IMG/VR virus record: IMGVR_UViG_3300002334_000124
Span: 20,765-84,764 of that record
Strand: one strand, 5' to 3'
DNA length: 64,000 nt
Source of the DNA: a virus
The notes under the pieces were generated by a model. The model ran no database searches. It was not told the origin of the DNA and worked only from the letters and a program-made list of their open reading frames with translations. Numbering within the stretch: position 1 is the stretch's first letter; each line of letters starts with the position of its first letter. This document shows positions 4,540-60,432 of this stretch, piece by piece. A program made the translations under genes and the position numbers.

Positions 4540-4551
4540 GAGGTATGACAC

Positions 4552-5127
4552 GTGAGTAACTATGGACGCAATTTCGTCCTCACTGTGCCACCTCATGGTC
4601 GCGATCGGAAGGGCCGTTTCTATAACGCACAAGGCGCAGCGATTCCGATCGGTGTTCCAGTTGTAGCAACTGACGGAACGCCAAACGCGTTGGGCCTAGA
4701 GCCTGTCACGTTGGCGACTCTGCCTCAGGCTCCTCCTCTCGCAGGTCGTGGTGGTATCGCAGTCTACGAGTACGGTCCCAACGCATTCGAGGGTACCGAT
4801 CCGGCCTTAACGGTCGGTAGTGATTTGGACACTGTTCCAGATACTAACGCAGTTCAGGTTGTTAGTGGGGCCTATATCAAGGTTCTTCTCATCAACACTG
4901 CAGCATCATCTCTCTTCCTCAACACACGGACTTACACAGGCCGCGTGATGGTAGCAGGGTTGAATGGTGCAACTAGCTCGATTGCAGTAGGGGATTACCT
5001 TACTCCGGGCTCAGGAAACGACACCGACGGATACTGGAATGAAACCACAACTGCTTCTGAAGCATGGATGGTTGTCACGAAGGTAGACGCTGATCGAGAT
5101 GAGCTTGAAGCTCAGCTCACTTTCTAA
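4552..5127 (+). CDS. Head decoration/cement protein
   Basis: 191-aa beta-rich protein directly before the MCP; AGGAGGT RBS. Confidence 0.6.
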   Translation: MSNYGRNFVLTVPPHGRDRKGRFYNAQGAAIPIGVPVVATDGTPNALGLEPVTLATLPQAPPLAGRGGIAVYEYGPNAFEGTDPALTVGSDLDTVPDTNAVQVVSGAYIKVLLINTAASSLFLNTRTYTGRVMVAGLNGATSSIAVGDYLTPGSGNDTDGYWNETTTASEAWMVVTKVDADRDELEAQLTF

Positions 5128-5143
5128 GGAGGAGGTGAACAAA

Positions 5144-6100
5144 ATGGGAACATCCACATACATCGATAACCTCGGTCGCAACAGCGAAGAGCGTGCAAAG
5201 ATTCAGGCAGAGATCGCAATGGTCAACGCCGATGCAGAAGAGAACTGGGACGATCCTGCATGGCGTAAGACCATGGCTCAGGAAATGTCAGAGACAATTC
5301 TGCAAGGATTCGAGCACGAAAACCTCCTCCAGATTATGAGCCAGGTTGAGAATGCACCGTTCAACGGTCGGATTCTGATTAAGGAAGTCCGTGGTCTCCG
5401 CGCTCATTGGGTTGCGCGTGGCGGTTACATCGAAGTTAGCACGTTGCGTTCAAACGTAATGGAGCTTCCTCGGGACACCATCGGATTCCACGTGATGGAC
5501 TTCGAAGACAAGATTCGGACTAACTTCGCTGAGACTCAGAGTGACTTGATTACTCTTGGTCAGGAGCGAATGGATGCTGAGGTAAACCTCCGGGTTCTAG
5601 CTCTCTTCCAGTCTGCAATCGGTACTGGTTCTGACTTCTACGTCAGCGGCGCAGGTCTTAGCCTGTCTGCATTGAACACAGCACTTCGTGAGGTTCGTGA
5701 CGAAAGCAAGGTCAACGAAGTTGTCATTGTTGGTCGGTCGACTATGACCGATCAGATTATGGACAACCTCCTCGGCGGCTCTTTCAATGGTTCTGGCTTC
5801 CTGCCAGAAACTAACGAACAGCTTGTCAAGCGTGGTGTCTTGGGCGTTTATCGTAACGCTAGGATCCTCACTCTTGTCAACCACAAGGATGACGCTGACA
5901 TCAGCTTCTTCCCTGCAAACGAACTTTATGTCGTCGCTCGCGATGCCAGCAAGTTTGCTTTCTGGGGCGGTCTGATGTTCAAGGAGTACAGCGAACTCGA
6001 CGCTTGGTACTGGCACTACATTGCCCGCCGTGATTTCGGTGGCGTAGTTCATCGTCCTGAGCGTATGCGCCGGATGGTCGACACTAGCATCTCAGCTTAG
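5144..6100 (+). CDS. Major capsid protein
   Basis: AAGGAGGAGGT RBS before ATG 5144; 318 aa; synteny; strong terminator follows. Confidence 0.8.
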   Translation: MGTSTYIDNLGRNSEERAKIQAEIAMVNADAEENWDDPAWRKTMAQEMSETILQGFEHENLLQIMSQVENAPFNGRILIKEVRGLRAHWVARGGYIEVSTLRSNVMELPRDTIGFHVMDFEDKIRTNFAETQSDLITLGQERMDAEVNLRVLALFQSAIGTGSDFYVSGAGLSLSALNTALREVRDESKVNEVVIVGRSTMTDQIMDNLLGGSFNGSGFLPETNEQLVKRGVLGVYRNARILTLVNHKDDADISFFPANELYVVARDASKFAFWGGLMFKEYSELDAWYWHYIARRDFGGVVHRPERMRRMVDTSISA

Positions 6101-6126
6101 TCGATTGATCTAGCGAAATAGCGCTA

Positions 6127-6158
6127 AAAGGGCCCTCGGTTTCGACCGGGGGTTCTTT
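6127..6158 (+). terminator. Rho-independent terminator after capsid operon
   Basis: AAAGGGCCCTCGGT-TTCG-ACCGGGGGTTCTTT hairpin. Confidence 0.7.
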
Positions 6159-6257
6159 CGTCGTGCCCCGAACTTTATTCGAATTGCCATGTATTGTCTG
6201 GTTAAGCAAGCTACAGTACTGTTTGCATGCAATCTACGTAGATCAGGAGAGAGCAGT

Positions 6258-6818
6258 ATGGCAAGCCAATCGAAAGAACAGTGGAAGAATGTGAGCCGTG
6301 GCATCGCATTGGTTAACGTGTACGACTCCACCGGGAATCGCGTCGACCAGGAAATAGTCCGCTCCGGTCGCACTGTTGTCTTGTCACCCGAAGAGCGACG
6401 TCTTCTCAACCAGGATCGCACAGCTAGTGATTCTTTGGATATTTTCTCTAATGGGGTTTTGAGGCCTCTGTCTTTGGCAGACGACAGCGAAGACCTTTCT
6501 GAGAATCCAAATCACATGACCGAGGGTGACATGCGAGACATTTTCAGCCTCCGTAACCATCTCAAATTTAAGTCTGCTCTGTCTGAAATAGAGTCGGTAC
6601 CCGTCCTGCAGCGGCTTTTGTTTCTTGTGGATAACGACGACGACGAGGGTGATGAGAGTCTAAACCCGACAGTGAAGCAACGTGAGAGCATCGTCACTCG
6701 TCTTGACAAACTTCAGGTTCGTGCTGTGGATGTAGTCGAGGTCACCAATGTTGGCCATGTGAGTGGGAGCTTCGGCGAAGACGAACGCAGTCAGGTGCAA
6801 CCTTTCCGCTCCGAATAG
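6258..6818 (+). CDS. Hypothetical protein
   Basis: AGGAGA RBS before ATG 6258 (MASQSKEQ). Confidence 0.6.
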   Translation: MASQSKEQWKNVSRGIALVNVYDSTGNRVDQEIVRSGRTVVLSPEERRLLNQDRTASDSLDIFSNGVLRPLSLADDSEDLSENPNHMTEGDMRDIFSLRNHLKFKSALSEIESVPVLQRLLFLVDNDDDEGDESLNPTVKQRESIVTRLDKLQVRAVDVVEVTNVGHVSGSFGEDERSQVQPFRSE

Positions 6819-6867
6819 GACGCTGACAGTAATAGATCAAATACCTGTGCGGTAGTTGACGAAGGAC

Positions 6868-6890
6868 GCCCCTCAAAGAGGGGCTCTTTC
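6868..6890 (+). terminator. Putative terminator hairpin
   Basis: GCCCCTC-AAA-GAGGGGC followed by TCTTT. Confidence 0.5.
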
Positions 6891-6907
6891 GCGTCGATAA
6901 GAGGTAG

Positions 6908-9900
6908 ATGAATACTGATATTCCACCAGTACTTAAAGAGATCACTATCTACGAAGCGGCCACTTACTTTAAGGAGTTTGCTGTCGTTGACGTCGACGGC
7001 GCCGTCGTAGACATTTCAGGCTGGACAGGTGAAGCTCTTGCCGTCACTGCTATAGGTGGAGTCCTTCAGGGTACTTTCGAAGTCCACATCGTTGATGGAT
7101 CAGCTGGCACCTTCTCTTTGTACATGAGCGAGTCACAGACAGCTAACATGTCTGTGGGTGTTTACGACGTCATCTTGACCAGCGATGAAGCTACACCTGG
7201 TTTGTACGCTGTCAGGCACGGTCCTCTTGATTTCGTGAGAGAGGCATCCTATAGCAGCGTTGTTGAGGGTGTCCCTCTCCCCGACGTGGAGAGCCTCAAC
7301 GATCTCACAGACGTAGTACTCGTCACTCCTCTTAGCGGGCAGGTGTTGTCGTACAATGGCACCACGTGGGTCAATTCTGCAGCCTCAGGCTTGGGTGACA
7401 TGCTGGCGTCCACTTACGACCCAGCGACAATTGCGGAGCAACTGGTTGGTCTCACGGCGACTCAGACGTTAACCAACAAGACGCTGACTGCGCCTGTCAT
7501 CTCCGGGAACCTGACTACTGACGGTCTGATTGACGGCGTCGATGTCGCTACAGATGTGGCAGCCAACACCGCGAAGGTGACTTACCCTTCAGCTGATAGC
7601 ACCAAGCTAGCTGGCATCGAAACAGCCGCCGACGTGACGGACGAAACTAATGTGGCAGCGACGGCATCAGTCATAGCTAATACCGCGAAAGTCACGAATG
7701 CCAATCACACAGGTGAAGTTACTGGTAGTACCGCTCTGACGGTTGACAAGACGGTTATCTCGGGACAGACTTTGGTCACGGCTGTAGGAGCTGACCATGT
7801 ACTCATCGGCGACGCATCTAATGCAGACAATCTGAAGAGGGCACTTGTTTCTGATTTGACTGGTGGTGGTATCGCCAACATTGTCGAGGACGCAACGCCT
7901 CAGCTTGGCGGCAACTTGGATGTCAACGGCTTCACTGTGGACGGCCGCGATCCATCAGTCGACGGAACCAAGCTCGACGCCATTGAAGACAACGCAACAA
8001 TAGACCAGACGAATGCTGAGATTCGTACCGCCGTAGAGGCGGCTACAGACAGCAATGTTTTCACCGATAACGACCACACGAAACTGAACGCGATTGAAGC
8101 GCTAGCTGATGTAACTGATGTCGCAAACGTCGGAACAGCTGGTGCGCCGATAATTTCAGCTGGCGCTGGTGCGCCCTCGTCCACACCCACTAAAGTCGGC
8201 GACGTATACGTTGATACGACTGGTGACAACGTATATGCGGCAGCTGGTACTGCGTCCTCAGCCGATTGGAAGCAAGCCACTGGAGCGGGCGGTGGAGACT
8301 TGCTCGCTGCAAACAACCTGTCCGACGTTGCTAGCGCTCCGACGTCACGGACCAACCTAGGTTTGGCAATCGGATCTGACGTACAAGCTCACGACGCCGT
8401 GCTTGACGCTACGACAGCGTCGTTCCTTATCGCTGACGAGACCAAGCTAGATGCCATCGAAGCTCTGGCGGACGTCACGGATACAACCAACGTCACTGCT
8501 GCTGGCGCACTGATGGATTCAGAAGTTGATGCTGACATAAAGACTCTGGCATTGCCAGCCAACACAACAATTACCGCTGCTGCTGCCACCGTTCTGGACG
8601 ATGCCACTACGGGGGCCATGCTGACTACCTTGGGTGGTGCCACAGCAGCTCAGGGCACTACGGCCGATTCGGCGATGCAGGACCTGGTTGATGACGTCAC
8701 TCCGCAATTGGGTGGCGCTCTAGATGTCAGCGGACAGTCCATTGTGTCTGTGTCGGCTGGTGACATACCACTAACGCCCGACACTACTGGCAATGTAATC
8801 ATCGACGGAGTCAAGCATCCACAAGCGGACGGATCAGCAAATCAGTTGATGAAGACTGATGGCGCAGCACAGCTTGCGTTTGCTGACGTCAACAGTCTTC
8901 CGGTTTCCCGTATCTCCGGTAGCACATACAGCACGATTCAGCACCTCCAAGACATTTTCCATTCTGTAGGTCTTACTTCAGGTGGTGTGATCACCGACGA
9001 CGGCGACGGGACCATTACTGTAGCTACTGGTACTGGAGTAATCAGGGCGACTAACTCAGCTGTAGCGGAAATCCTCTTCTTTGACTGGGCAGCCGAGTCG
9101 GGTGTGGCTGTCGCTGTAACTGATAATGCGATGAACTACGTTTACGCCGAGTACAACTCGGGGTCTCCACAGGCTGTAGCTACGATCTCAAAGCGCACCG
9201 ATTTGATGACCAACGTTCTTCTCGGTACTGTTTACCGAGAGGGCACCGACCTTCATATCACTCTGTCTACAGCTCCTGGGGTAGGCAACCATGCCGCTCA
9301 GATGGTACAGAGAATGCACGAGACGTTGCCATTCGCTCGGGCCTCTGGTGGTGTGCTATCTGAAATTGGCACCCGCAACATTGCGATTTCTGCCGGGTCT
9401 TGGTGGGATGGATTAACGAACTTTGCAACCAGCGCTCTAGACACGAGTGTTGCCGGAACATTCAGATATTTCTACTCTGATGGCTCTGGCGGGTTCACTG
9501 AGATCACTGCTCAAACGCAGATCAACAACACTCAGTATGATGATGGCTCAGGCAGCTTGGCTACGCTTTCAAATAACAGGTATGGGGCTCACTGGGTCTA
9601 CGTTTCACAGAATGATGCCTATCTGGTAGTGTTCGGAACCGTTGATGGGACGCTGTCTGTTGCCGAAGATGCCCCTGAACCTTCGTCATTGCCTCCATTC
9701 TTTGCAGAAACACATGCTCGTCTCATTGGCAAGATTATCATCCTGAAATCAGCGTCAACGTTCCACTCTACACAGTCGGCGTTTGACCTAACATTCAGCC
9801 TACAGACAGCCTCAGATCATGGGGGCCTTGTCGGGCTCGGTGATGATGATCATTCACAATACATTCTGGTTGATGGTACTCGTGCACTAACAGGCGACCT

Positions 9901-12558: not shown

Positions 12559-12944
12559 GTTACGCATTTAGTCTCGATGGAACTACGATCGACAAGGTCT
12601 CTGACTCTTTGCCTAGAGAGACCTGGGTGGATACCACTACTCCTGGCGGGGTTTCCAAAGGAACCTTTGTTGATCTCACGGAAGCGAACAAGAACAGTTA
12701 CAACTGGTACTTCTTTGACGATACCGTTGTTCAACCATCTCTAGATCATGTGTCCAGAGGTGCGGAACGCGTGGGCAATGAGTTCTCTATTGTTTGGGTG
12801 TTTGACCAAGGACTGCAAGACAATCGTTTAGCGAATGAGGCGAGGAATACTAAACGACTGTCTGACATATCAGACCTTAGAGCGGGAAGGACAAGTGCTG
12901 CCGATTTGAGAGATCTAATGGCGGAGATTCTAGAGGAACTATGA
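12555..12944 (+). CDS. Hypothetical protein (possible fibre assembly chaperone)
   Basis: ATGA overlap; follows the fibre genes. Confidence 0.5.
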   Translation: MSYAFSLDGTTIDKVSDSLPRETWVDTTTPGGVSKGTFVDLTEANKNSYNWYFFDDTVVQPSLDHVSRGAERVGNEFSIVWVFDQGLQDNRLANEARNTKRLSDISDLRAGRTSAADLRDLMAEILEEL

Positions 12945-12955
12945 GCTACCTCTGT

Positions 12956-12981
12956 TTGATTTATGCTTCCTGATTGCCGAT
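12956..12981 (+). promoter_or_regulatory. Putative late promoter TTGAT-N15-GCCGAT
   Basis: Same bipartite motif with 15-nt spacing at 18520, 30025, 31473 and 48736. Confidence 0.55.
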
Positions 12982-12999
12982 CTAATAACAGGAGGAATA

Positions 13000-13512
13000 A
13001 TGACTGTCTTTCTTTCGGATCTGGTGTCGTCTCTAAAACGTGAAGTTCAATCGCCGGGAACAAACACGTATCCGTTAGCCACGGTTGAGGATTGGCAGGG
13101 CTATCTGGCCGATGCATTTTGGGAAGTAGCCCTCCTGGGAATAATCAACATTACCGTCTTCACTGAAGCTGATTACGAGGTCTCCCCTGTTACTAGTGGT
13201 GGCGCAGATTTGGGTCGTGACTATCAACAGCTTCTCGTTCTTTGGGCGGGCGCTAGAGTGGTGTCTGCGAAGATCCTGGAGTACAACTCGACTTTCCGTG
13301 CCGTAGCTGGCCCAGTGGAGTTTGAACAGCAGAAGGCCGCGTCGGTCATGACGGCCGTCCTTGAAGGCATCCAAAAGCGTCTTGCTGCTGTTCTAGAACA
13401 TCTACCCAACAGCGTGAACACTAATACGATCCAGTATTTTGATGTAATCACAGAGCGCACGCTCTACAACCATTCTCCGGCTGACTTTTATAACGGCTTT
13501 GTGGGGTACTAG
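13000..13512 (+). CDS. Head-to-tail adaptor (putative)
   Basis: Synteny, size, AGGAGG RBS. Confidence 0.55.
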   Translation: MTVFLSDLVSSLKREVQSPGTNTYPLATVEDWQGYLADAFWEVALLGIINITVFTEADYEVSPVTSGGADLGRDYQQLLVLWAGARVVSAKILEYNSTFRAVAGPVEFEQQKAASVMTAVLEGIQKRLAAVLEHLPNSVNTNTIQYFDVITERTLYNHSPADFYNGFVGY

Positions 13513-13515
13513 GTC

Positions 13516-13998
13516 ATGGAGACTGGCAACCCCCTACAAGATGGCTTCGATCCTACCGAGTTTCGCACCGCGATCGAATTTGCCATGGCTATGGGTCTTC
13601 CTGGAACTCAGAGTGAACGGATCACTTTTCAGTGGGATGATGAGAAAACTTTCGCTGACGCTGATGAACGTGGTAGTCCGTATACCTGGACAGATTCCCC
13701 AACATCTACTGTTTCGGCGGTTGATATTCCGTCATCTTTGACTGTGCCTTGTGCTGTCGAGTTCTCGGCTCGTCGCTCGTCTTCGGGTGATACGATCATA
13801 GGTTCTTTTGACGCTTCGGCTATCACCCTCACCCTTCTGGATACTCAGTATGCGTTGATACGGGACGTTAATCTGCAGCTTCCTAACAAGGTCATTGTGG
13901 ATGGCAATACTTACGACATCAGTTTCTGGGGTCCTCCTGTTGGTCTCTTCACTGTGACTGTATATCAGGCTCACGCGCAGGCGCGCGACGAGTCTTAG
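13516..13998 (+). CDS. Head-to-tail stopper (putative)
   Basis: Synteny; beta-rich C-terminus VIVDGNTYDI. Confidence 0.5.
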   Translation: METGNPLQDGFDPTEFRTAIEFAMAMGLPGTQSERITFQWDDEKTFADADERGSPYTWTDSPTSTVSAVDIPSSLTVPCAVEFSARRSSSGDTIIGSFDASAITLTLLDTQYALIRDVNLQLPNKVIVDGNTYDISFWGPPVGLFTVTVYQAHAQARDES

Positions 13999-14006
13999 GA
14001 GTAAGG

Positions 14007-14534
14007 ATGACTATTGTAGGCGGTCTTAGGACCAGACTTCTTTTCGACTCGTTGTACAACGAGATAGAGAGAGCGTTGACAGCCCTCGGATGGTTCGACT
14101 CTGGTCGTCAGCATCTTCCAATCAATTTCATCAACGAACCGGTGGATGAGAAAGAAGAAGTTGCTTTTAACACGCTTGTTCTTTATGCGGAAGATGGAGA
14201 CACCCGCCAGGAAGAGATGGGTAGCGACCTGTCCGAGCACAGACGTACGTTCTACTTAGACTTCTACGCCGAGAACATCTCGGTGGGGGAGCATTTGATC
14301 TTTGATTGTCAGGCGATTCTCGAAGGTCGTATGAGTTCGGTCGGTCGTTCCTCTCATTTCTTTGACATCTTCGATTATCAGCAGGCTACACCTCCTGTAA
14401 TCGCTAGTGCAGAGATTGGCGAGGACGTAATCATCGATCGAGCCATCACGTACAGTTTTCCGTGGCAGAAGCATTGGTATAGCTGCCAGTTCACTGTTTC
14501 GGATTTCTATGGAACGGAAGACGATGACGCATAG
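14007..14534 (+). CDS. Tail terminator/completion protein (putative)
   Basis: Synteny; acidic 175-aa protein with FYLDFYAE. Confidence 0.5.
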   Translation: MTIVGGLRTRLLFDSLYNEIERALTALGWFDSGRQHLPINFINEPVDEKEEVAFNTLVLYAEDGDTRQEEMGSDLSEHRRTFYLDFYAENISVGEHLIFDCQAILEGRMSSVGRSSHFFDIFDYQQATPPVIASAEIGEDVIIDRAITYSFPWQKHWYSCQFTVSDFYGTEDDDA

Positions 14535-14545
14535 GAGCGTGGGTA

Positions 14546-14833
14546 ATGCAGGATGCTGTGAGGGACTTAATCCAGAGCAGATGTAAGAGGACTTGTCGGA
14601 TCATTTTGGATGCCAAGGAGGAGTTATGTGATGTACACATGAGTCCCGAAGCCTCTGATCGGTTCAGGGAAGTGGTGTTGGATCAGATCAACGACTTCAA
14701 GAGTCTGTTTCTGACTTTGCTGGAATCGCTTGACGGGAGCGACATTCAGCTCAACCAGTTGTGGTTGGATCGTCTTGAGGAAATGTATGAGGTGATTCAA
14801 TCCATTGCCCCGGATGACGACATTACTGTATGA
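14546..14833 (+). CDS. Hypothetical protein
   Basis: AGGAG RBS; overlaps next gene. Confidence 0.55.
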   Translation: MQDAVRDLIQSRCKRTCRIILDAKEELCDVHMSPEASDRFREVVLDQINDFKSLFLTLLESLDGSDIQLNQLWLDRLEEMYEVIQSIAPDDDITV

Positions 14834-50420: not shown

Positions 50421-50552
50421 CGCTTTGAGTCGAAGAATCTCCATGCGTCCCCAAGGGGACTGTCACATGATTGGTCCTCCTCTCACCCACCTGCAACGGG
50501 GTTCGATGTCAGCATCATTATTCTATCGGTATTTGGGGCCACAAATCAAGAG

Positions 50553-50774
50553 CTAATTGGATTTACGTCGCGCTCTACGTGCAAGTCGTTCCCGTTTCCT
50601 GACAGCGATACAGATCTTGCACGCACTACGAAGGTCTGATGCGTGAGGTAGTCCACATCTATTCTTCGGGATGGGACAGCCACCTAAGCTACGTAGCGCA
50701 GTCTGATACGCGAGTTCGTAGTCGGGGTCTATTCGTCGTTCTCTGAAGTAACGCTCAGCACCAGTGGGAGACAT
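50553..50774 (-). CDS. Small basic Cys-rich protein
   Basis: C.....C...H......CKIC plus Arg-rich tail. Confidence 0.45.
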   Translation of the reverse strand: MSPTGAERYFRERRIDPDYELAYQTALRSLGGCPIPKNRCGLPHASDLRSACKICIAVRKRERLARRARRKSN

Positions 50775-50790
50775 GCAACTACCATACAGG

Positions 50791-53250
50791 TTAAGACGCT
50801 TCAGTCATCGCCTTGCGAAGAGCGACGACGCTGGTGGAGTACTCGTCGGGGAGTCGCATGGTTCTACCCATGTAACGTACGGTAACGGGTCCGTCGCCTT
50901 TGCTTTTGAGAATCAGTTCTTTGAGCATCTCGGGTGAGTAGCTATCGGGTAGCCAGACGTGCACGTTGCGGCAGGTAGAGAGAGCACGCTGGAAGAGTTT
51001 GCAGGTCTCAACCAGGATCTTGGTGCCGTTGCGGTCGTCTTCGGGTCTGCCATTCACGTATACGACTGCGTCTTCTTCGATGAACTGGCCGAACAACTTA
51101 GTCTGACGAGGAAATAAGACGCAGCTAATGGTGCCTGTCATGTCTTCGATGTCAAATATCTTCATTAGGTCACCTTTCTTGGTCCACTTGTTGTCGACCT
51201 TGGTGATGATCCCTGCGATGGTGCCCTTGTACCAACTATCTTCTTCCATCTCGTTGAGTTCAGCGATGGTGTACGAGATGTCCTCATCCAGTATTTCCTG
51301 TATGTCAGCGAGGGGATGGCCCGAGATGTATGCGCCTAGGTACTCTTTCTCTAGAGAGAGGAGCTCTGCCTGGTCGTAGTGCAGGTCAGGGATGCCTACC
51401 TTGGCGACCTCGGGTTCGACACTGAACAGCTGCAGGTCACCTAGTTTCTCGATTCGTTTGGAGTCTTTCTTCATCTGCGCCTGGATCTGAGGGTAGATCT
51501 GTACCAGGCCGCGACGTGGATGACCGAGAGCATCGAACGCACCTGATGACACTAGGGCATTGACGACGCTCTTGTTAAGGGCTTTCGCTCCGACACGTTC
51601 GGTGTAGTCAAAGAAGTCTTTGTAGTCCCCTTCGGCTTCGCGTTGCTCCACGATTTCCTGTGCCGGACCTTCACCTACGTCACGGATCCCGAGGAACCCG
51701 CATATCAGCGTAGTGTCATCCAACGGGCGGAAGTTTCGTTCGCTCCGGTTGATCTGTGGCCCCATCACAGTCAGACCCATGCGTTTACATTCGGACAGGT
51801 AGATGCTCAGCTTGTCTTGCTTCCTCTGAGCGCTGGTAAGGAGGGCAGCCATGAACTCTATTGGGTAGTTAGACTTCAGGTAGGCAGCCCAGTACGTAAT
51901 GAGGCCGTAACCCACAGAGTGGGATTTATTGAAGGCATAATTTGAAAACTCAGCTACCGTGCTGAACAGTTTGTCGGCTAGTTCTTGACCAAAGCCGCGA
52001 TCTACCATGCCTCCTACGAACTTGTCTTCTTCTTCCGCCATGGCTTCGGGTAGTTTCTTGGCACAGGTCTTGAGCAGTAGGTATGCCTCACCGAGGGAGT
52101 AGCCAGCGAAGTGCTGTGCTACGTCCATTAGTTGCTCCTGATATATCATCAGACCGTAGGTCTCTTTGAGCATCTTCCTGGCATCTTCGTGGAACACTTC
52201 GATCGATGCGCGTCCATTCTTGCGGTCTGCGTAGTCGATGTGCATGTTCGCAGCGAGAGGACCGGGACGATAGAGCGCCAGCACGGCAGCGATGTGTTCG
52301 AACTCGGTGGGTATTAGATCACGCAACAACGCACGCATCTGTGTGCCTTCGAGCTGGAACACTCCAATGGTTTCGCCTGCCTGGAGTGTCTCGAATGTCT
52401 TCTCGTCGCCTAGAGGCAGAGCGTTCAGGTCGATGTCTACTTGGTGACGTTCGAAGATCAATTTGAGCGCGTCAGAGAGCACGTCTAGAGTGGTTAGTCC
52501 GAGGAAGTCTTCCTTCAGCAGGCCGAGATCTTCGATCGCATGCATCTCGTACTGGGTGGTGATGGGACCATCCGGTTTCTTCTGGATCGGAGTGTAGTTG
52601 ATCAGTGGTTTGGGGGCTATCACCACAGCAGCAGCATGAATGCCATAGGATCGTCGCAGACCCTCTAATCCCATGGCTACATCTACGACTTCACGCACGT
52701 TGGAGTCCGCCGAGTACATGGAGCGTAGAGTCCCGGCTTGGTCGTATCCGTCTTTGTACCTCTCGGATTCGACAAGGCATGCCTTCAGCGGAGTGTCCCG
52801 ACCGAACAACAGAGGGGGCAGGGCTTTGGCGATGAGATCTCCTGTACTGTACGGCTTGTCGAGCACTCGGGCAGCATCTCGTACGGCTTGACGGCTCTTG
52901 ATCGTGCCGAAGGTGATGATCTGTGCCACATGGTCTTCGCCGTAGGTCTTAGCACAGTAGTTGATCATGTGTTCCCGGTAGCGTGAGTCGATGTCGATGT
53001 CGATATCACATAGAGAAGCTGCTTTGCCATACTGAACTGACAACCCCTCAGGGATCTTCATTGGCTTTTCGTTGGTTAGTCCTATAACGTACAATACGGT
53101 TGAGCTTTGCGGATTCGAATATGTGGACTCAGATGTATCGAACATCTCCACGATAGCGTCGACCATGCCTGGCGTCGCGAAGATAGCTGCGGCCTCGTCA
53201 TCTAGCCATTGTTTGTTCGCTGAATCCTTCCTCGGAGAGAAAGTGATCAT
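50791..53250 (-). CDS. dnaE: DNA polymerase III alpha, C-terminal part (catalytic Asp residues, fingers, HhH, OB); start uncertain, frame open to 53352
   Basis: CDIDID, QIITFG, GIHAAAVV, KEDFLGL, GVFQLE, YAFNKSH, YISGHPL. Confidence 0.92.
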   Translation of the reverse strand: MITFSPRKDSANKQWLDDEAAAIFATPGMVDAIVEMFDTSESTYSNPQSSTVLYVIGLTNEKPMKIPEGLSVQYGKAASLCDIDIDIDSRYREHMINYCAKTYGEDHVAQIITFGTIKSRQAVRDAARVLDKPYSTGDLIAKALPPLLFGRDTPLKACLVESERYKDGYDQAGTLRSMYSADSNVREVVDVAMGLEGLRRSYGIHAAAVVIAPKPLINYTPIQKKPDGPITTQYEMHAIEDLGLLKEDFLGLTTLDVLSDALKLIFERHQVDIDLNALPLGDEKTFETLQAGETIGVFQLEGTQMRALLRDLIPTEFEHIAAVLALYRPGPLAANMHIDYADRKNGRASIEVFHEDARKMLKETYGLMIYQEQLMDVAQHFAGYSLGEAYLLLKTCAKKLPEAMAEEEDKFVGGMVDRGFGQELADKLFSTVAEFSNYAFNKSHSVGYGLITYWAAYLKSNYPIEFMAALLTSAQRKQDKLSIYLSECKRMGLTVMGPQINRSERNFRPLDDTTLICGFLGIRDVGEGPAQEIVEQREAEGDYKDFFDYTERVGAKALNKSVVNALVSSGAFDALGHPRRGLVQIYPQIQAQMKKDSKRIEKLGDLQLFSVEPEVAKVGIPDLHYDQAELLSLEKEYLGAYISGHPLADIQEILDEDISYTIAELNEMEEDSWYKGTIAGIITKVDNKWTKKGDLMKIFDIEDMTGTISCVLFPRQTKLFGQFIEEDAVVYVNGRPEDDRNGTKILVETCKLFQRALSTCRNVHVWLPDSYSPEMLKELILKSKGDGPVTVRYMGRTMRLPDEYSTSVVALRKAMTEAS

Positions 53251-53260
53251 GTTGCGAAAT

Positions 53261-54013
53261 CTAGAAGAGTTGCTTAGCTCGTTCATATTTCCTATCCAGG
53301 CTAATGTTCGAATCTTTGTATAGCCAGATGATGGTATCTCTATGAGCTTCAAGTGCCCATATGGATTTGTGTTTCATTATGGACCCAGATCGTGGCAGTT
53401 CTTGTTTTAGCCAGGACATCATCGCATGCGTCCCAACCACTTTCAGCCTAAAAGTTTTGCCCGATATGGCCACGCTCCCATCACCGTCGACAAAACCACG
53501 AATGAAATGTCGAATCAATTCTTCGTCGTCTATGTTCGGCGGATTGAGATCGTGTGTTTTGTTTGGATGACAACCATGACTCCAAAGATCTGTGACCATC
53601 TGATGACTGGTTATCGCTAAGCGCGCTACTTTTGCTTTGCCATAAGACGTGACTTGTGAGAATAGGTGAACTGGATATGTAGACGAAAGATCTTTAGCCA
53701 GCCTTACGAGATGTGTTTGGTCTTTGTCGCTGAGGTCGACCTTGAGCACGTATTGACCGTCGTAACAACCTGAGGAACTGTCAGCATAGAGAAAGCCTAG
53801 CCAATAGGCTTTCTTTTCGTTGTTGATTTCGGAGAAGAAGGAGTGATTGACCTCATACCTCCTACTGTTCACCTTGTTTGATCGACATTCGATGCCTTCG
53901 CGCTTGAGTATCCAGTAAACTTGATGGGCCTTGAGCCCAATTTCGTGCCCGACGATCGCGGCTGACTTGCCTTCATCGTACAATTCCAAGATTCTCTGAG
54001 TATGATTTTCCAT
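53261..54013 (-). mobile_element. LAGLIDADG homing endonuclease with N-terminal HTH, inserted in dnaE
   Basis: KAYWLGFLYADS and RHFIRGFVDGDG; own RBS AGGGAGGT. Confidence 0.88.
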
Positions 54014-55319
54014 TATACGTGACCTCCCTACTGTTGCTATCGACTTCGAGAGCCGTCAATTCAACTTGGTACTTGAAAACATCGTCCATAGCACCACGGG
54101 CAGGATTCAGGAAACGTTCGAAGAGTAGCCCGTACTTGAGGGGGTCTACGTCTGTGATCCCGAGACAGTAAGCCACGGCGCAGCCACCTGCTGAGCCACG
54201 ACCAGGACCTACCATGATGCCTACGCTTTTGGCGTGACGAATCAGGTCCCATGTGATAAGGAAGTAGCCAGGGAATCCCATCTGACATATGACGTCAAGC
54301 TCATATTCGAGCCGGTTCACAACCTCGCTGGTTAGTGTCCCGTATCTACGTTCTGCACCATCTATGACGAGGGCGCGCAGATAGTCTTCTTCGTCCGCGT
54401 ACCCGTCGGGGATATCGAAGTGTGGCATGTGGACCGTGTCGAAGTCGATGTCGATGTCAGCCCGTTCAGCGATCAGCAACGTATTGTCGCACGCCACTTC
54501 TACTTCACGGAACAGATGCCTCATTTCGTAGGCTGACTTGAGGTAATGCTCGTGTCCGTGGAACTTGAACCGGTTCGGGTCGGACATCTTCGACCCTGTC
54601 TGTACGCAAAGTAACGCAGAATGGGCCATAGAGTCAGATGACAAGGTGTAGTGCGAATCGTTGGTGGCTACTAGGGGCGCGCCTATAGCTTTAGAGATCT
54701 CGATGAGCTGCGGGTTTGTCTGTGTCTGTTCAGGAATCCCGTGGTCTTGTATCTCGATGAAGAAGTTTTCTTTACCAACGATGTCCTGGAACCTGCTGGC
54801 TGCTTCTGTGGCTGCTCCCACGTCGCCGCGTAGCAATTCCTGAAGGACGATGCCCCCCAGACAGCCCGACGTCACTATGAGGCCCTCAGCGTGGTCTGAG
54901 AGGATGTCCCAATCAATGCGAGGCTTACGCCAGAACCCCTTGAGGAACGCATCTGACGACAGCTTCATCAGATTCTGATAGCCCTCGTTGTTGTGGGCGA
55001 TGACAGTTAGATGATGAAATGCCTTCTGACCGTCTTCGGTCTCGCCCCCGAAGTCGTCTATGGTTTTCTTCTTCGGCTTCGGACGGTCGGCCACACTGTG
55101 TCGCGCCATGTAAAGCTCGTTGCCGATGAGAGGTTTGATGCCCTGCTTCTTGCATTCCTTGTAGAAAGGGATCGCCCCGTACATGTTTCCATGGTCGGTG
55201 CAGGCTATGGCAGGTTGCCCATCAGCAACTGCGGCGCTTACCAGTTCCTCAATTTTCGAAGCCCCGTCAAGCATGCTGTACTCGCTATGGACATGACAGT
55301 GCACAAACGAATCAGTCAT
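53973..55319 (-). CDS. dnaE: DNA polymerase III alpha, N-terminal part (PHP domain plus start of palm)
   Basis: [41 protein letters not shown]; start MTDSF at 55319. Confidence 0.92.
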
Positions 55320-55650
55320 CAATCGTTGCCTTTTTCCATGGGATGGCATCACACAGATATTCTAGGTAAGGAGGTAGTAGCACAATTGCAGTCATGGGCG
55401 AACTTGAATACTTGCCGAGGGCACGTTCGAGGGAAGCTAATCTTTCACAGACGTCGCAACTATAAAAATCTAGCCACGCCTGTGGAGTGTTGTTTCTGCC
55501 ACACTGGCAACATCTACCGGGAAAATCGGAGGTTGCTAAGACTGCTGCTCGCATTCGGCCATCATGCAGCAAAATGCCATCTTGATATGGAGCCCAAGAA
55601 AGCGAAACCCCCAGGATCACCAGTCCGCGAGGCGTCATTAAGTTGACCAT
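55312..55650 (-). CDS. Zn-finger paralogue 7
   Basis: [43 protein letters not shown]. Confidence 0.75.
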
Positions 55651-55958
55651 TGGGTTGTTGCTCCTTTCCATGATGTGTCGCTGCATAGGTATGCTAGATG
55701 TAAAGGTAACTGCACGATCCGGGTCTTCACGAACGGAACGGAACGTGGGCAGACTTCACAACGATATTCATCTGCCCGTCGCTGCATGAAGTTGGCACGA
55801 CCACATCTGCAGCACCTACCGAGAATATCAGGAGTCGCTAAGACTATCGGAAATATTGATGATAGATGTTCAACGTACAGAACTCCATCTTGATACGGAG
55901 CCCAAGATATCGGGACTCCGAGGATTACCAATCCTTCGTACGTTACGAAGCTAACCAT
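55638..55958 (-). CDS. Zn-finger paralogue 6
   Basis: MVSFVTYEGLVILG..QDGVL..GRCCRCG..CEVC..LPLHLAYLC. Confidence 0.75.
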   Translation of the reverse strand: MVSFVTYEGLVILGVPISWAPYQDGVLYVEHLSSIFPIVLATPDILGRCCRCGRANFMQRRADEYRCEVCPRSVPFVKTRIVQLPLHLAYLCSDTSWKGATTQWST

Positions 55959-56319
55959 ATCTACACCGTGCGTCGCAGAGGTACTCCAGATGGGGGGGCA
56001 CAATCACGACTGAAGTTAAAACATTGAGTCCCAGATATGACGAACGCGTCCCAAGGATATTCAGACAGTGTCCACAACAATAGATATTTCTGTACGGCCA
56101 ATCGATAGGGAGACGTTTACACCAATAACCTGTTCCGATAGATCGATGAGTGTCAGATCGACCACATTCGCAACACCTGCTGCGGTGGCTACCACTGGCT
56201 AAGACTATTGACTGACTCTTCGAACCGTCCCACACAATGCCATCTCGGTGTGGGATCGAATCATGTTTGACTGCGTCCAGCATCACCAATCCTTCTCGGA
56301 TCATGAAGTTAACTGTCAT
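55951..56319 (-). CDS. Zn-finger paralogue 5
   Basis: MTVNFMIREGLVML..RDGIV..RCCECG..CGHC..PPHLEYLC. Confidence 0.75.
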   Translation of the reverse strand: MTVNFMIREGLVMLDAVKHDSIPHRDGIVWDGSKSQSIVLASGSHRSRCCECGRSDTHRSIGTGYWCKRLPIDWPYRNIYCCGHCLNILGTRSSYLGLNVLTSVVIVPPHLEYLCDARCRYG

Positions 56320-56641
56320 CGCAGAGATACTCCAGATAACGAGGCAGCCTCAGAATGGCAGTTAGCACCACGTTGAGTTTGCGATTGACGCCTCTGCCTT
56401 TGCAATTTACACAACAATGAACATTCGCCCATAGCCACTCAATGCTGAACAGGGTGCAGATGCCTCTGTCCTCATACGCAAAGCCATTTCCACTACCACA
56501 GGTGCCGCATTTGCTTCTGTCTCCGGGTCCGACTAGGACTATCTTCTGACGGTGCGGGCCATTGAATAGGATGCCGTCTTCGCATTTCTCGCCTATCCCG
56601 AGTATGACCAATCCTTGCGGGATCATGATGTTAACGGTCAC
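56309..56641 (-). CDS. Zn-finger paralogue 4
   Basis: MTVNIMIPQGLVILG..EDGIL..KCGTCG..CVNC..LPRYLEYLC. Confidence 0.75.
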   Translation of the reverse strand: MTVNIMIPQGLVILGIGEKCEDGILFNGPHRQKIVLVGPGDRSKCGTCGSGNGFAYEDRGICTLFSIEWLWANVHCCVNCKGRGVNRKLNVVLTAILRLPRYLEYLCDDS

Positions 56642-56915
56642 GACACAACCATTCTAGATGATGCGGCAGTGTCAGGACTGCAGTGGCTGTCGGACATGTT
56701 GGACAATAGTAGGTTTTAAAGCTAAGCTTCATAGGGATCCCGTCCACGGTCTCCCCACATTGACAACATCTACCGGGGTTGTCGGAAGTTGTAAAGACTA
56801 CTGGGACTCGCCAGCCGCTATCTCTGACTAGGACACCGTCGTGATGTAGTGTCTCGTCATCGAATTCCACGTCCAGTATGATCAACCCTTCTGACGTCAT
56901 CAGGTTAATGGTCAT
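56631..56915 (-). CDS. Zn-finger paralogue 3
   Basis: MTINLMTSEGLIIL..HDGVL..GRCCQCG..CPTC..LPHHLEWLC. Confidence 0.75.
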   Translation of the reverse strand: MTINLMTSEGLIILDVEFDDETLHHDGVLVRDSGWRVPVVFTTSDNPGRCCQCGETVDGIPMKLSFKTYYCPTCPTATAVLTLPHHLEWLCRDR

Positions 56916-56923
56916 GGCACAGG

Positions 56924-57286
56924 TTAACAGTCACGACATAGGAACTCCAGGTGAGAGGGCAGAGGTAAAAGTGCCGTTAAGATCATGTCGTACTGTGGTC
57001 CTGACTTACATCCTACACAACGGTAAGTGTCAGCCCATGGCCAGTCGATGGGGAATATCGAGCAAAGCCCTCCAGGATCCACTGCTGGGGCGCTTTCCTT
57101 GCCACAACCCCAACACCTACCCTTGTAGCAGCGGGTTGTTAGAACTATTGGTTGAACCCGGTTGGCGTTCATCAGGATGCCATCCTCGTATCCTTTTAAG
57201 CGAGCGGTGATTTTGGTGTAAACTCCGCCGCGATATACGCCGCCGAGTATCACCAATCCTTTTGGGATCATCAGGTTGACAGTCAT
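56924..57286 (-). CDS. Zn-finger paralogue 2
   Basis: MTVNLMIPKGLVILG..EDGIL..GRCWGCG..CVGC..LPSHLEFLC. Confidence 0.75.
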   Translation of the reverse strand: MTVNLMIPKGLVILGGVYRGGVYTKITARLKGYEDGILMNANRVQPIVLTTRCYKGRCWGCGKESAPAVDPGGLCSIFPIDWPWADTYRCVGCKSGPQYDMILTALLPLPSHLEFLCRDC

Positions 57287-57678
57287 ATGGGACTCAAATT
57301 GACTGTCCATGATTTGCCACCGCTCCATGGCTCACTGGTGCACAGATACTCCAGGCAAGGAGGGAGGAAGATCAGCAGAGTTGTTTTGGTCCCACTAATG
57401 GGAAGACCCGGACAGTCTATACAGGTATGAGTACCGACGTAGGCGTAGTAGGCGCCGGTCGAGTATTTCTGTTTCTTGTTGTGCGAACCACATCTGGAAC
57501 ACCTACCCCAGTATCGTGACGTTGCCAATACTATTGATCGCATTATCTGATAACGATGATTGAACAGGATGCCATCCTGGTACGGATCCCAATACGATAG
57601 GTCCGACTTTTCCGCGGCACATCGAGCCGATACGCCCAGTAGAACTAGACCTTCTTTGACGGGTATGTTGACAGTCAT
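57283..57678 (-). CDS. Zn-finger paralogue 1
   Basis: AGGAGGT RBS; MTVNIPVKEGLVLLG..QDGIL..GRCSRCG..CIDC..LPPCLEYLC. Confidence 0.75.
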   Translation of the reverse strand: MTVNIPVKEGLVLLGVSARCAAEKSDLSYWDPYQDGILFNHRYQIMRSIVLATSRYWGRCSRCGSHNKKQKYSTGAYYAYVGTHTCIDCPGLPISGTKTTLLIFLPPCLEYLCTSEPWSGGKSWTVNLSPI

Positions 57679-57712
57679 TCAGGACCTCCTGTCTGGGTTG
57701 TGGACGTAACAG

Positions 57713-57741
57713 AAGCTAGCAGTGTAGTAGAGATGCGTCAA
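57713..57741 (-). promoter_or_regulatory. SigA-type promoter TTGACG-N17-TAGCTT with extended -10 TG
   Basis: Direct reading; near twin at 60015-60043. Confidence 0.65.
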
Positions 57742-57754
57742 GCTGAAAGACTTA

Positions 57755-58281
57755 GGAGAGGCGCGATAGGTATGGGTTTCGTGGTGAGCGTGGCCCCTCC
57801 CTTAGAATCGAAGTTGGCTGGCGCGTGAGTTTTGGGTTCCGACGCTCTTTTGGCCAGACCAACTTCAGAGTTGTCAAGAAATAACCGGAGTGCGGCGTCA
57901 GTTTCATGGGTTTCGCACCTGTCATGGCTGCACCCCGGTAGAGAATGGAACTGGCTGGCGATGCTCGTTTGGGTTCAGACATGTCCTTGGCCAACCAGTT
58001 CCAAGAGGTAACCGAGCGTGACGAAGTATTAAGGGGTTTCGCAGCATCCTGGTCACGCTCGGTAGAAATGAGGATTGCCCTGGTTGACGGTGACACTCTG
58101 GGTTTCGCGAAGTTCAAGATCAACCAGGGTAGAAAAAGTAGGGAAGGTAGAAAGGGTAGAAAATGATCCCCTACCGCGGACTCACAGTGGGTTTCGTCGT
58201 TACTCTGGCAGGTAGGGGATCAGAGAATGGTGGACTGGCGGCTTTTCCGTGGGTTTCGCGTCATGGTTGGCCAGCCCGCCA
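57755..58281 (-). ncRNA. TIGR-like stem-loop guide array, 8 units
   Basis: Each unit on - strand: stem-GGCCA-N9-CGAAACCCA-N9-CGCC-stem; loop repeats at + 57773, 57833, 57907, 57970, 58033, 58099, 58188, 58250. Confidence 0.88.
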
Positions 58282-58290
58282 GAATAAAAC

Positions 58291-59058
58291 CTATGCGGAG
58301 TCCACAGCGACCCACAGGTCTTTGAGTAGGTTCTTCTTGATGATCCTGAGACCATGATTGTTTACGTGTCCCGGTTTCCAATCTGGATGGGCCAGAGCAG
58401 CTGACGTTTTGGCGTCGTAGTAGTAGTCGCAGTATCTTTCGTTCTTCAACCTCACCATGTTTCCAGCGATGACATGCAGGATTATTCCTGCGTTCTGGTT
58501 GCCTAAAGCCTGAGCGGCTTCCTGTGTCATGCCCGTTTTCCGTCTTTCTTGGCTACCTACACCACAGTACTGCCAAAGCATGCTCACTGAACGGGGTACG
58601 GTTTTGCCTGACACGAGGATCTGTTCAGGCGTATCGTCCCGCTTCTTTTTTCCCGTGGGGTCGTCTTCATGCCACATCGGAGTCTTCCAGCATGGGTGAC
58701 CGATCGCGCCGAGCAAACGGCCGAACGACTTATCGTTCAGTCCACGTGTCTCTTCCATGAATCCGACGAAGACGGGCGGGAGTACTTTGATTTGCGTTCC
58801 AAGTAGCGTTACAAGTTTGGTTTCCTGGTCAAGCATCACCGCGGCGTACTCGAACACTTCAGGGGCTGCGCTCACATTGCGAACAATCAGCTTGTCTTCT
58901 TTACCTTCGCGGATCTTCCTGCTGATGTTTGCCTTGCCTTCGATCCCGAGTCTGTTGTCTAAGGAGATCCGGTACTTCATTGAGCTTTCAAGGAGCAAAG
59001 AGGTCATGGCGACCAGTTTGAAATCTCCGAGTACTTTCTTGGTTGGCTTCTTGGCCAT
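58291..59058 (-). CDS. tasA: Nop-domain/IS110-related RNA-binding protein without nuclease domain (TasA-like)
   Basis: RISLDNRL coiled coil, RGLNDKSFGRLLGAIG, SVSMLWQYCG, YYYDAK, HVNNHGLRIIKKNLLKDLW; no RuvC or HNH; flanked by dual-spacer arrays. Confidence 0.8.
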   Translation of the reverse strand: MAKKPTKKVLGDFKLVAMTSLLLESSMKYRISLDNRLGIEGKANISRKIREGKEDKLIVRNVSAAPEVFEYAAVMLDQETKLVTLLGTQIKVLPPVFVGFMEETRGLNDKSFGRLLGAIGHPCWKTPMWHEDDPTGKKKRDDTPEQILVSGKTVPRSVSMLWQYCGVGSQERRKTGMTQEAAQALGNQNAGIILHVIAGNMVRLKNERYCDYYYDAKTSAALAHPDWKPGHVNNHGLRIIKKNLLKDLWVAVDSA

Positions 59059-59101
59059 TGGGTTTCGCTTTCTATTTGGGTTTAGTTGGTGTTATTGAAC
59101 T

Positions 59102-59239
59102 TAGAGGGCTGGCGCAGCGGCTCTGGGTTTCGAAGCTGTAATGGCCAGCCCTCTAGAAATTAACCCCTGACTGCCAGTCAAGGGAAAGTGCGGGCTGGCG
59201 CCTATTCTGTGGGTTTCGAGCCATTCCTGGCCAGCCCGC
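59102..59239 (-). ncRNA. TIGR-like guide sub-array, 2 units
   Basis: Loop repeats at 59124 and 59210, 9-nt spacers, near-perfect enclosing stems. Confidence 0.88.
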
Positions 59240-59250
59240 TGAGATTGAAC

Positions 59251-59823
59251 TTAGGTGATGTCTGGGACTTCGTATTCGGGACGCTTCTTCAGCACCGCCC
59301 TCAATGACTTGACACCTTCGGCGTTCATGTCGTCGATGGCTTGCTGATGTCCGCTGATCGTCTTCTCGATACCGTTGACATCCTTTTGCAAGAACTTGAT
59401 GCGAGCCTCATGCTGTTCGGGGGTGGCGTCCAGATAGTTGGCACGATGAGCGTTACCTTCATCATCGATCCAGGGGAACTCGACATGAGATAGGTACGCC
59501 CACGGATTCCGCTGCTCTACGACTGTGCCTCCGCCTTTCTTTCCCTTCTTGCCTTTGGCTGCCCTCTGTTGGGTGTCGATGTCCTTGCGTTCCTCGAATA
59601 CAGCCGCGACTATAGGCTGGGTTACACTGTTCCTGACCATGGGGACCACAGCTCCAATGATGCTCGGGATGACAGAGTCTTCTGCCCCGTCGCTCCTGAT
59701 GGAGTTCCAGGCCATCAAACCGTGGTCGTAGTTGGAGAACGTTGGGTTGTTGATCAACGAATCTTTGATGTAGTCCCGATAGGACTTCGTCGCGACCTTG
59801 GTCTTCTTGGTTTTCACTGCCAT
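59251..59823 (-). CDS. Unknown protein embedded in the TIGR-like locus (190 aa)
   Basis: AAGGAAAG RBS before ATG 59823 (MAVKTKK); basic patches; C-terminal coiled coil. Confidence 0.75.
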   Translation of the reverse strand: MAVKTKKTKVATKSYRDYIKDSLINNPTFSNYDHGLMAWNSIRSDGAEDSVIPSIIGAVVPMVRNSVTQPIVAAVFEERKDIDTQQRAAKGKKGKKGGGTVVEQRNPWAYLSHVEFPWIDDEGNAHRANYLDATPEQHEARIKFLQKDVNGIEKTISGHQQAIDDMNAEGVKSLRAVLKKRPEYEVPDIT

Positions 59824-59854
59824 GTTTGCTTTCCTTGTAGTTGGTGGAGAAAGG

Positions 59855-59975
59855 TTGATCGGGCTGACGGGCGCTTGATGGGTTTCGCGTGCAGGATGGC
59901 CAGCCCGATCAAGGGTGTTTCCCTGGCTGGCGAAGCGTAATTGGGTTTCGTTCCGTTTCTGGACAGCCAAGGAAA
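59855..59975 (-). ncRNA. TIGR-like guide sub-array, 2 leader-proximal units
   Basis: Loop repeats at 59879 and 59942, 9-nt spacers, enclosing stems. Confidence 0.88.
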
Positions 59976-60014
59976 GAATGTTGACATCCCCTCGAATCTC
60001 GGGAGTCTAGAAAG

Positions 60015-60043
60015 AACTTAGCAGGTTTACGGGTCTGCGTCAA
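60015..60043 (-). promoter_or_regulatory. SigA-type promoter TTGACG-N17-TAAGTT (extended -10) upstream of the TIGR-like operon
   Basis: Direct reading; about 40 nt upstream of the first unit. Confidence 0.65.
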
Positions 60044-60432
60044 ATGTCGACGTCAACAATCTCCCAGTCCATTGCGTCAGCGAGGCCTCTCATGTGAGCT
60101 GTCCCTCGTCCACCGGGGCACGCCACGAGGATCGTCTTGTTAAACAAAGACTCAAACAACGAGGGATGTGATTCACAAGTGACAGCAGTAGCCAGCATCC
60201 CCATCCGCTTGTTCCTCTGAGGGCCAGCACTACGTCCTTCAGCGTCCCACAGTGCAGGCATCGTGACGAAAGGGATCCCCTTGTCTAAGGCGTACCGAGC
60301 ACCGATAGCATCGGCCCCTTTGGCCCCTCCGTTGATGATGAAGGTGGGTTGGACTTCGTCGAGTGTGGCATACAGGGCTTGCGTCCCATTGTAGTTGCGG
60401 CCACCACAAACTATGACGGTACGTTCAAACAT
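60040..60432 (-). CDS. SLOG-family (DUF2493/YspA-like) protein
   Basis: VCGGRNY, INGGAKGAD, AGPQRN, PGGRGT. Confidence 0.85.
   Translation of the reverse strand: MFERTVIVCGGRNYNGTQALYATLDEVQPTFIINGGAKGADAIGARYALDKGIPFVTMPALWDAEGRSAGPQRNKRMGMLATAVTCESHPSLFESLFNKTILVACPGGRGTAHMRGLADAMDWEIVDVDI

Follow-up and report, generated by a model that had tools for sequence, protein, structure and literature searches.

Seven old, divergent tandem paralogues of a putative zinc-ribbon family between TIGR-like guide units and dnaE in a viral genome

The stretch of DNA analysed here (the window) comprises 64,000 nucleotides (nt), the right-hand 64 kb of the 84,764-nt IMG/VR virus record IMGVR_UViG_3300002334_000124, which is classed as linear and estimated to be 57% complete. 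On its minus strand, at 55312-57678, seven open frames (numbered g1 to g7 from the guide end) stand in tandem between TIGR-like guide units and dnaE, and their products, which align over their full length, form one family of small proteins with two CxxC motifs. Codon comparison shows that purifying selection holds a common protein frame in all seven copies and that the copies are old and have all been kept intact; within the collections covered, our searches confirmed the proteins as an orphan, lineage-specific family. Our best guess is that they represent a panel of zinc-ribbon binding modules with different specificities, which would be expressed alongside the replication genes.

Seven members of one protein family

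An earlier note on this DNA had described seven tandem, divergent CxxC paralogues between the guide array and dnaE, and these are present as described, the products being 94-131 amino acids (aa) long when the gene starts are set by the common N-terminal motif. The flanks are likewise as claimed, with repeated guide units upstream and a PHP-domain DnaE downstream. All of the motifs named in that note were recovered in the seven-copy alignment, namely M(T)VN..GLVILG, DG(I/V)L, (I/V)VLAT, a first CxxCG, a second CxxC and T....LPxHLEYLC, and 16 alignment columns are invariant (G, L, L, D, G and V, the first C and the C-G of the first CxxCG, the two C of the second CxxC, then T, P, L, L and C). Between the conserved blocks four segments vary freely in length and sequence, the spacing from CxxC to CxxC being 14-29 residues. 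The tandem expansion is genuine and involves one family, in which a conserved frame alternates with segments that vary strongly and pairwise protein identity is 30-53%, g6 and g7 forming the closest pair (53%). This similarity is significant: BLASTP recovered every one of the 21 pairs, 17 having E<=1e-3 when a database of nominally 1e9 residues is assumed, and leave-one-out hidden Markov models (HMMs) gave 67.7-95.7 bits per copy as against no more than 10.7 bits in 200 shuffles of each. A profile search over the entire 84.7-kb record returned exactly seven matching places, which are the seven array genes:

57283-57678, minus strand: g1, 131 aa, heading the array (open-reading-frame list and alignment); leave-one-out HMM 75.5 bits
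56924-57286, minus strand: g2, 120 aa from the motif ATG; leave-one-out HMM 88.9 bits
56631-56915, minus strand: g3, 94 aa, the shortest, acidic (isoelectric point (pI) 4.9); leave-one-out HMM 67.7 bits
56309-56641, minus strand: g4, 110 aa, GTG start within the end of g3 (11-nt overlap); leave-one-out HMM 81.2 bits
55951-56319, minus strand: g5, 122 aa; leave-one-out HMM 95.7 bits
55638-55958, minus strand: g6, 106 aa; leave-one-out HMM 71.4 bits
55312-55650, minus strand: g7, 112 aa, AAGGAG 10 nt before the ATG; leave-one-out HMM 88.0 bits

Upstream in-frame ATGs at 57310 and 57328 would extend g2 to 128 or 134 aa, and a public gene call (P0001) takes the one at 57310. Some features are confined to part of the copies. 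An extra segment between both CxxC motifs, C..F/L.I-D/E-W.W/Y, is common to g2, g4 and g5, and a C-terminal tail with W..G/K...W is common to g1, g6 and g7, the tail of g1 (..PWSGGKSWTVNLSPI) being similar to those of g6 and g7.

Selection on the protein and age of the copies

Where an amino-acid column is invariant, the first two codon positions do not vary beyond Leu synonymy, while identity at the third position is just 0.24-0.71 in 15 of the 16 columns; with third positions free and positions 1 and 2 fixed, conservation acts on the protein and not on the DNA. An alternative in which the array is no set of genes at all, being instead a degenerate DNA repeat with incidental open frames, would fit the absence of homologues and of expression data, but its probability is close to negligible, given this codon-position pattern of selection on protein, the open frames with conserved Cys motifs in seven of seven copies, and the calling of six of the seven array genes by public gene callers.

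The number of synonymous substitutions per site (dS, NG86) is 1.29-3.39 in 17 pairs and undefined (saturated) in the other 4, and the nonsynonymous counterpart (dN) is 0.42-0.79 over the 21 pairs. Saturated dS together with the intact state of all copies is our main argument that each copy is separately useful. The earlier note had suggested diversifying selection; what the codons show is selection of the purifying kind, acting on the common frame.

These values also bear on the proposal, made in the earlier note, of an accordion-like expansion or cassette shuffling. A dynamic system of this kind, in which copy number or cassettes change fast by recombination at conserved ends in the course of an arms race, would agree with the conserved ends and variable middles of the copies and with the start-motif duplications at two junctions (see below). 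For the present state it is largely refuted, however, by the 30-53% identity and by dS that is saturated in all pairs (at least 1.29 or undefined), and we regard it as very improbable. Exact DNA runs shared between copies reach 14 nt, as compared with 11 nt at most in shuffles, and physically overlapping junction bases account for several of the longest ones; the flanks of the copies are 61-80% identical across 46 nt. Since no shared run exceeds 14 identical bases, there is no present substrate for homologous shuffling, and since every copy has its own start and open frame, there is no silent cassette. Where residues are identical, the codon is so too at a frequency of 0.46, the codon usage of these genes giving an expectation of 0.35, and for each of six of the seven proteins a single sequence is on record, on 6-7 JGI contigs, its 90% cluster containing no near-identical variants. 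The literature search returned nothing relevant on gene accordions in bacteriophages, as judged by title or abstract.

An orphan family

The collections searched may leave out records near-identical to the window. With the seven copies as queries, Pfam, PHROGs, PADLOC and NCBIfam gave isolated weak matches, each of one copy: in Pfam a single copy matches C1_1 at E 0.0076 and no curated zinc-ribbon model is matched significantly, and the best E values in PADLOC, PHROGs and NCBIfam are 0.011 (one copy, to a Cas12f zinc-finger region), 0.056 and 0.13, respectively. The N-terminal segment by itself has no match in Pfam or the PDB, and the best E in the PDB profile search is 0.68. A word-indexed search of 5.8 billion proteins gave five matches, all of them the window's own, and a profile search of 1.84 billion representatives gave eight, which are six window proteins and two long repeat proteins. 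The latter two, a C2H2 repeat protein and a surface-repeat protein, were judged from their sequences to be spurious as relatives. No match to the array was found by blastn, or to g7 and g2 by tblastn, among 50,697 phage records (INPHARED), and a locus search based on g5 gave 15 pattern hits in viral contigs and 97 in metagenome contigs, none of which is a relative. The similarity of the copies is significant and the libraries searched hold no known family or fixed-copy set of homologues, so the array stands as the unrecognised family that the earlier note had taken it for.

A putative zinc ribbon

We infer a zinc-ribbon fold for the array proteins. Four cysteines, C60, C63, C86 and C89 (g1 numbering), do not vary among the seven copies and make up two CxxC knuckles, in which the proteins are like C4 zinc ribbons, both the small ones of phages and the ribosomal eS27 and eL43. 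The latter two are also the best PDB profile matches, which are weak and insignificant (E 0.7-1.8). At the level of a lead, the nearest ESM-Atlas feature clusters for g3 consist of small viral proteins (score 0.92-0.93), and one g3-near cluster has been automatically named TFIIB-type zinc finger. The array proteins differ from C4 zinc ribbons, compared here by sequence alone, in adding an N-terminal segment of ~45-59 residues and a C-terminal LPxHLEYLC with a fifth invariant Cys, and in having no significant match to curated zinc-ribbon models. Two further ideas, a fold in which the zinc ribbon is inserted into an OB- or Sm-like barrel and a presumed likeness to actinobacterial RNA-polymerase-binding zinc proteins, were considered and dropped.

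Gene junctions and coupling to dnaE

Within the array, neighbouring genes overlap at five of the six junctions, by 4, 11, 11, 8 and 13 nt, the stop of one gene sitting in the first codons of the next, and the g7 stop overlaps the dnaE ATG (55317-55319) by 8 nt. The statement that junction DNA encodes both one C-terminus and the next start holds for these five junctions of the array, g2/g3 being the exception with a gap of 8 nt. From the overlaps of 4-13 nt and the 8 nt at g7/dnaE, the array genes look translationally coupled to dnaE. The features at the starts are as follows:

57685-57690, minus strand: Shine-Dalgarno AGGAGG, 6 nt before the g1 ATG, the strongest ribosome site of the array
57263-57310, minus strand: g1/g2 junction, two adjoining start-motif copies of ~24 nt (pairwise alignment)
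56901-56938, minus strand: g2/g3 junction, 19-nt tandem duplication of the start motif (repeat search and alignment)

The partial start-motif duplications reported for two junctions are thus both real. At g2/g3, 56920-56938 is identical to 56901-56919 at 15 of 19 positions; the upstream GTG copy opens merely a short dead frame, and it is because of this 19-nt tandem duplication that g2/g3 has the lone gap of the array. At g1/g2, 57287-57310 aligns with 57263-57286 over ~24 nt with insertions and deletions, the upstream copy being degenerate. The two duplications hint at past slippage or unequal exchange, of which they would be the footprints.

Clear ribosome sites are confined to g1 and g7; the remaining starts have at most a GGAG at 11-13 nt, which lies inside the conserved L-E-Y codons of the preceding gene. 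Terminator-like sites were found neither within the array, nor just upstream of it, nor between the guide units and g1, and a promoter scan gave nothing above shuffle level. TTGACG-N17-TAGCTT, a candidate promoter read by eye upstream of g1, fell below the threshold of that scan and was rejected.

Neighbourhood, dnaE and the probable host

The array belongs to a minus-strand block that consists of a metallophosphoesterase-like gene, an HD/dNMP phosphatase, a SLOG-family protein, the Tas-like gene with its guides, the seven genes and DnaE, while the plus strand holds long genes of structural size. The adjoining polymerase gene was assigned as follows:

53973-55319, minus strand: N-terminal part of dnaE; Pfam PF02811 6e-54 (PHP) and PF07733 9.6e-40 (pol III alpha)

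The complete dnaE (50791-55319) is in two parts, between which lies, in another frame, a LAGLIDADG endonuclease gene (53261-54013; phrog_4645 'endonuclease', 7.8e-47); Rfam gave no match at E<=1 over 50500-60300, and no group I intron in particular.

The N-terminal part of DnaE is 64% identical to DnaE of Ilumatobacteraceae/Acidimicrobiales metagenome-assembled genomes and 53% identical to the best IMG/VR phage; that it is closer to cellular DnaE than to any phage DnaE found is a hint as to the host, and also that its polymerase gene was acquired by the phage fairly recently. The relatives of the Tas-like protein in cultured phages (83 records) are all from Mycobacterium, Arthrobacter and Rhodococcus phages. 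From the 64% DnaE match and these actinobacterial-phage relatives, the host is probably an actinobacterium, and possibly a member of the Acidimicrobiia.

The position of the array suggests an alternative in which the seven proteins are replisome accessories working with the phage DnaE, either as template-recognising or polymerase-tethering modules, perhaps comparable to the zinc-binding domain of primases, or as subunits of a complex in fixed proportion. It is for such a role that the 8-nt overlap of the g7 stop with the dnaE ATG, the coupling of the entire gene string, the absence of any terminator-like site between array and dnaE, and the setting in a module of replication and nucleotide metabolism would speak. 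A part of this kind is not expected to be confined to a single phage lineage, however, and the family was found by hmmsearch of six-frame open reading frames (ORFs) in none of 61 viral loci with a related DnaE; nor do these 61 loci contain a tandem array of at least three small paralogues of any family. The five closest whole records give no family match, and in the closest relative (53% DnaE identity) the small genes that precede dnaE are unrelated; no primase or single-stranded DNA-binding protein family of Pfam is matched. We give the replisome role a modest minority chance. As a separate observation, this closest relative (L008, a 113-kb viral contig) encodes at 3864-7685, upstream of dnaE, a 1273-aa primase-helicase-like ORF with what look like intein-like interruptions, as read from the translation.

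The adjacent TIGR-Tas locus

The earlier note had also considered a link to the adjacent TIGR locus, which is the immediate same-strand neighbour of the array:

57755-58290, minus strand: TIGR-like stem-loop guide units with core CGAAACCC, directly upstream of g1
58291-59058, minus strand: Tas-like protein, 255 aa; phrog_4285 'transposase', 1.6e-21

The guide core CGAAACCC has 83 minus-strand matches at <=1 mismatch as compared with 46.7 expected, and its exact copies cluster at 57774-59950. The guide units extend over 57755-60043, with core CGAAACCC(A) and stems GGCTGGCC / GCCAGCC, in three groups around the Tas-like gene. The Tas-like protein has a 72%-identical relative (P0010) encoded by a Logan contig of 15,265 nt. 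One exact copy of the core octamer occurs inside g7 (55603-55610), on the plus strand and hence opposite to the guides; its flanks form no stem, and it is probably there by chance.

tigRNAs are reported to have two short spacers, the targets of which are adjacent half-sites on opposite strands, gaps of 1-2 bp being tolerated (PMC12045711, Faure et al. 2025). TasA and inactive TasR are described in the searched passages of a preprint as RNA-guided repressors, the natural role of which in phages is open (10.64898/2026.09.09.750476, Xu et al. 2026); these passages do not speak of zinc, accessories, paralogues or neighbours. Array proteins acting as accessories or effectors of TIGR-TasA might be partners recruited by a nuclease-less Tas-tigRNA complex or factors of tigRNA maturation. 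The array begins ~75 nt past the last guide unit, on the same strand and with no terminator-like site between, and at a different TasA locus an extra downstream flank with several coding sequences is reported to have sharpened tigRNA processing (10.64898/2026.09.09.750476).

The evidence from other loci and from the spacers is against this role. None of 40 Tas-related contigs, 14 of them viral and 26 from metagenomes, holds the family (best <=6.7 bits), the test having low power for enrichment, with 21 of the 26 metagenome contigs shorter than 8 kb, and the family is absent from the neighbourhood of the inspected mycobacteriophage Tas relative. For the spacers, 12 of the ~13-14 units were scanned (variant units near 57971 and 59078 were left out), with boundaries set by our own choice at 9 nt each side of the core, and the 84.7-kb record was searched on both strands for pairs in two arrangements separated by gaps of 0-2; the scan gave one match of 16/18 and two of 15/18, as against 0.4 and 3.9 in shuffles, and none of the targets is in the array.

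A second Tas-bearing phage, represented by two contigs of 129 kb and 185 kb from one sample (L078 and L076, the same phage), has an array of its own. At L078 13685-14652 (the same at L076 9798-10765) stand five tandem zinc-ribbon paralogues of 62-83 aa, with the motifs MAAIVSD..WxCxxCG.. ..IVPWQPS and junctions that overlap by at least 16 nt, followed on the same minus strand (12874-14652 with the next gene) by a 227-aa gene with two WQCEVCG..WCRxCH modules. This array resembles that of the window in its small copies, conserved N-terminal end, CxxCG, second Cys pair, conserved C-terminal end and overlapping junctions, as well as in being carried by a Tas-bearing phage. It is not detectably homologous, however (hhalign probability 3%, the CxxCG knuckle alone aligning), it is without the N-terminal segment, and it is separated from tas by 4.9 kb, on the opposite strand, and is not beside dnaE. 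Its position near tas is a point in favour of the TIGR-TasA role, but arrays of small paralogues were found in one lineage among the 14 Tas viral contigs and in none of the 61 control loci, a difference that is not significant, and a single analogous lineage is too few to claim enrichment with Tas. We consider a tie between the array and TIGR-Tas unlikely, and the accessory or effector role as formulated above an improbable one.

Proposed role of the array

It is proposed, tentatively and with rather less than even confidence, that the array is a lineage-specific zinc-ribbon family that expanded long ago to seven copies, is coupled with dnaE and acts as a panel of binders. The family would be one of small single-domain zinc ribbons, and its expansion to seven tandem copies would have taken place in the early or replication arm of a tailed phage. 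The common frame consists of an N-terminal segment resembling beta-strands (GLVILG, DGIL, IVLAT), two CxxC knuckles and the C-terminal LPxHLEYLC. All copies would be made from one transcript, with coupling by termination and reinitiation running through to the polymerase. With what would be the same fold and different loops, the copies may bind different targets, such as host or phage proteins or nucleic acid, early in infection. As for the use to which such binders are put, host takeover or counter-defence is our guess at the most likely one; it has no support in Pfam, PHROGs or PADLOC, and no paper on tandem paralogues in phage anti-defence was found in the literature search.

Several points weigh against this proposal. 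No homologue with a known role was found in any library searched, and the ESM Atlas models of two array proteins are poor (pLDDT, the predicted local distance difference test, 0.31 and 0.49). The variable loops may reflect relaxed constraint rather than different specificities. The net charge of the copies is unremarkable (pI 4.9-8.9), which indicates neither a DNA mimic nor a strong nucleic-acid binder. Expression and coupling of the array are read from the sequence alone, and the close connection with dnaE suits a role in replication no less than one in counter-defence.

A more specific idea is that the seven paralogues form one hetero-oligomeric assembly in fixed proportion with DnaE, the common frame providing the interfaces and the loops the position-specific surfaces. 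The idea was suggested by the number of intact old copies, their coupled arrangement and their shared core, and we hold it to be decidedly improbable; if true, it would mean a phage-built multi-paralogue zinc-ribbon complex at the replisome or beside TasA, of a kind undescribed in phages.

Comparison with known multigene families and significance

Two families of eukaryotic viruses invite comparison with the array. In the gene accordions of poxviruses (K3L amplification), the copies are recent, near-identical and variable in number. In both cases a small viral gene with a presumed part in host interaction has been multiplied in tandem, whereas the copies of the array are 30-53% identical with saturated dS and no recorded variation. 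MGF110 of African swine fever virus is a small Cys-rich multigene family of secretory-pathway proteins in a eukaryotic virus. Its genes, like those of the array, are paralogues that stand in tandem, diverged long ago and are confined to one virus lineage, and their products of ~100-130 aa conserve cysteines while the remainder varies; but there is no sequence relation, and the array appears to be a translationally coupled operon of bacterial type that ends in dnaE.

Small zinc-ribbon proteins and lineage-specific families are common in phages, and in this respect the array is of a familiar kind. What is unusual is that seven copies have stayed intact through synonymous saturation, that they are chained into a polymerase gene, and that they have no relative among 1.84 billion representatives; this persistence, chaining and orphan status argue that each copy does something different and useful. 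What reduces the value of the array is that functional evidence is lacking, as are relatives on which evolutionary tests could be made. The array nevertheless offers a compact natural set of variants on one scaffold, which may be useful for learning what must be bound early in infection by a phage of Actinomycetota that are themselves poorly studied, and the unrelated array of the same design in a second Tas-bearing phage suggests that such sets may be a recurring solution.

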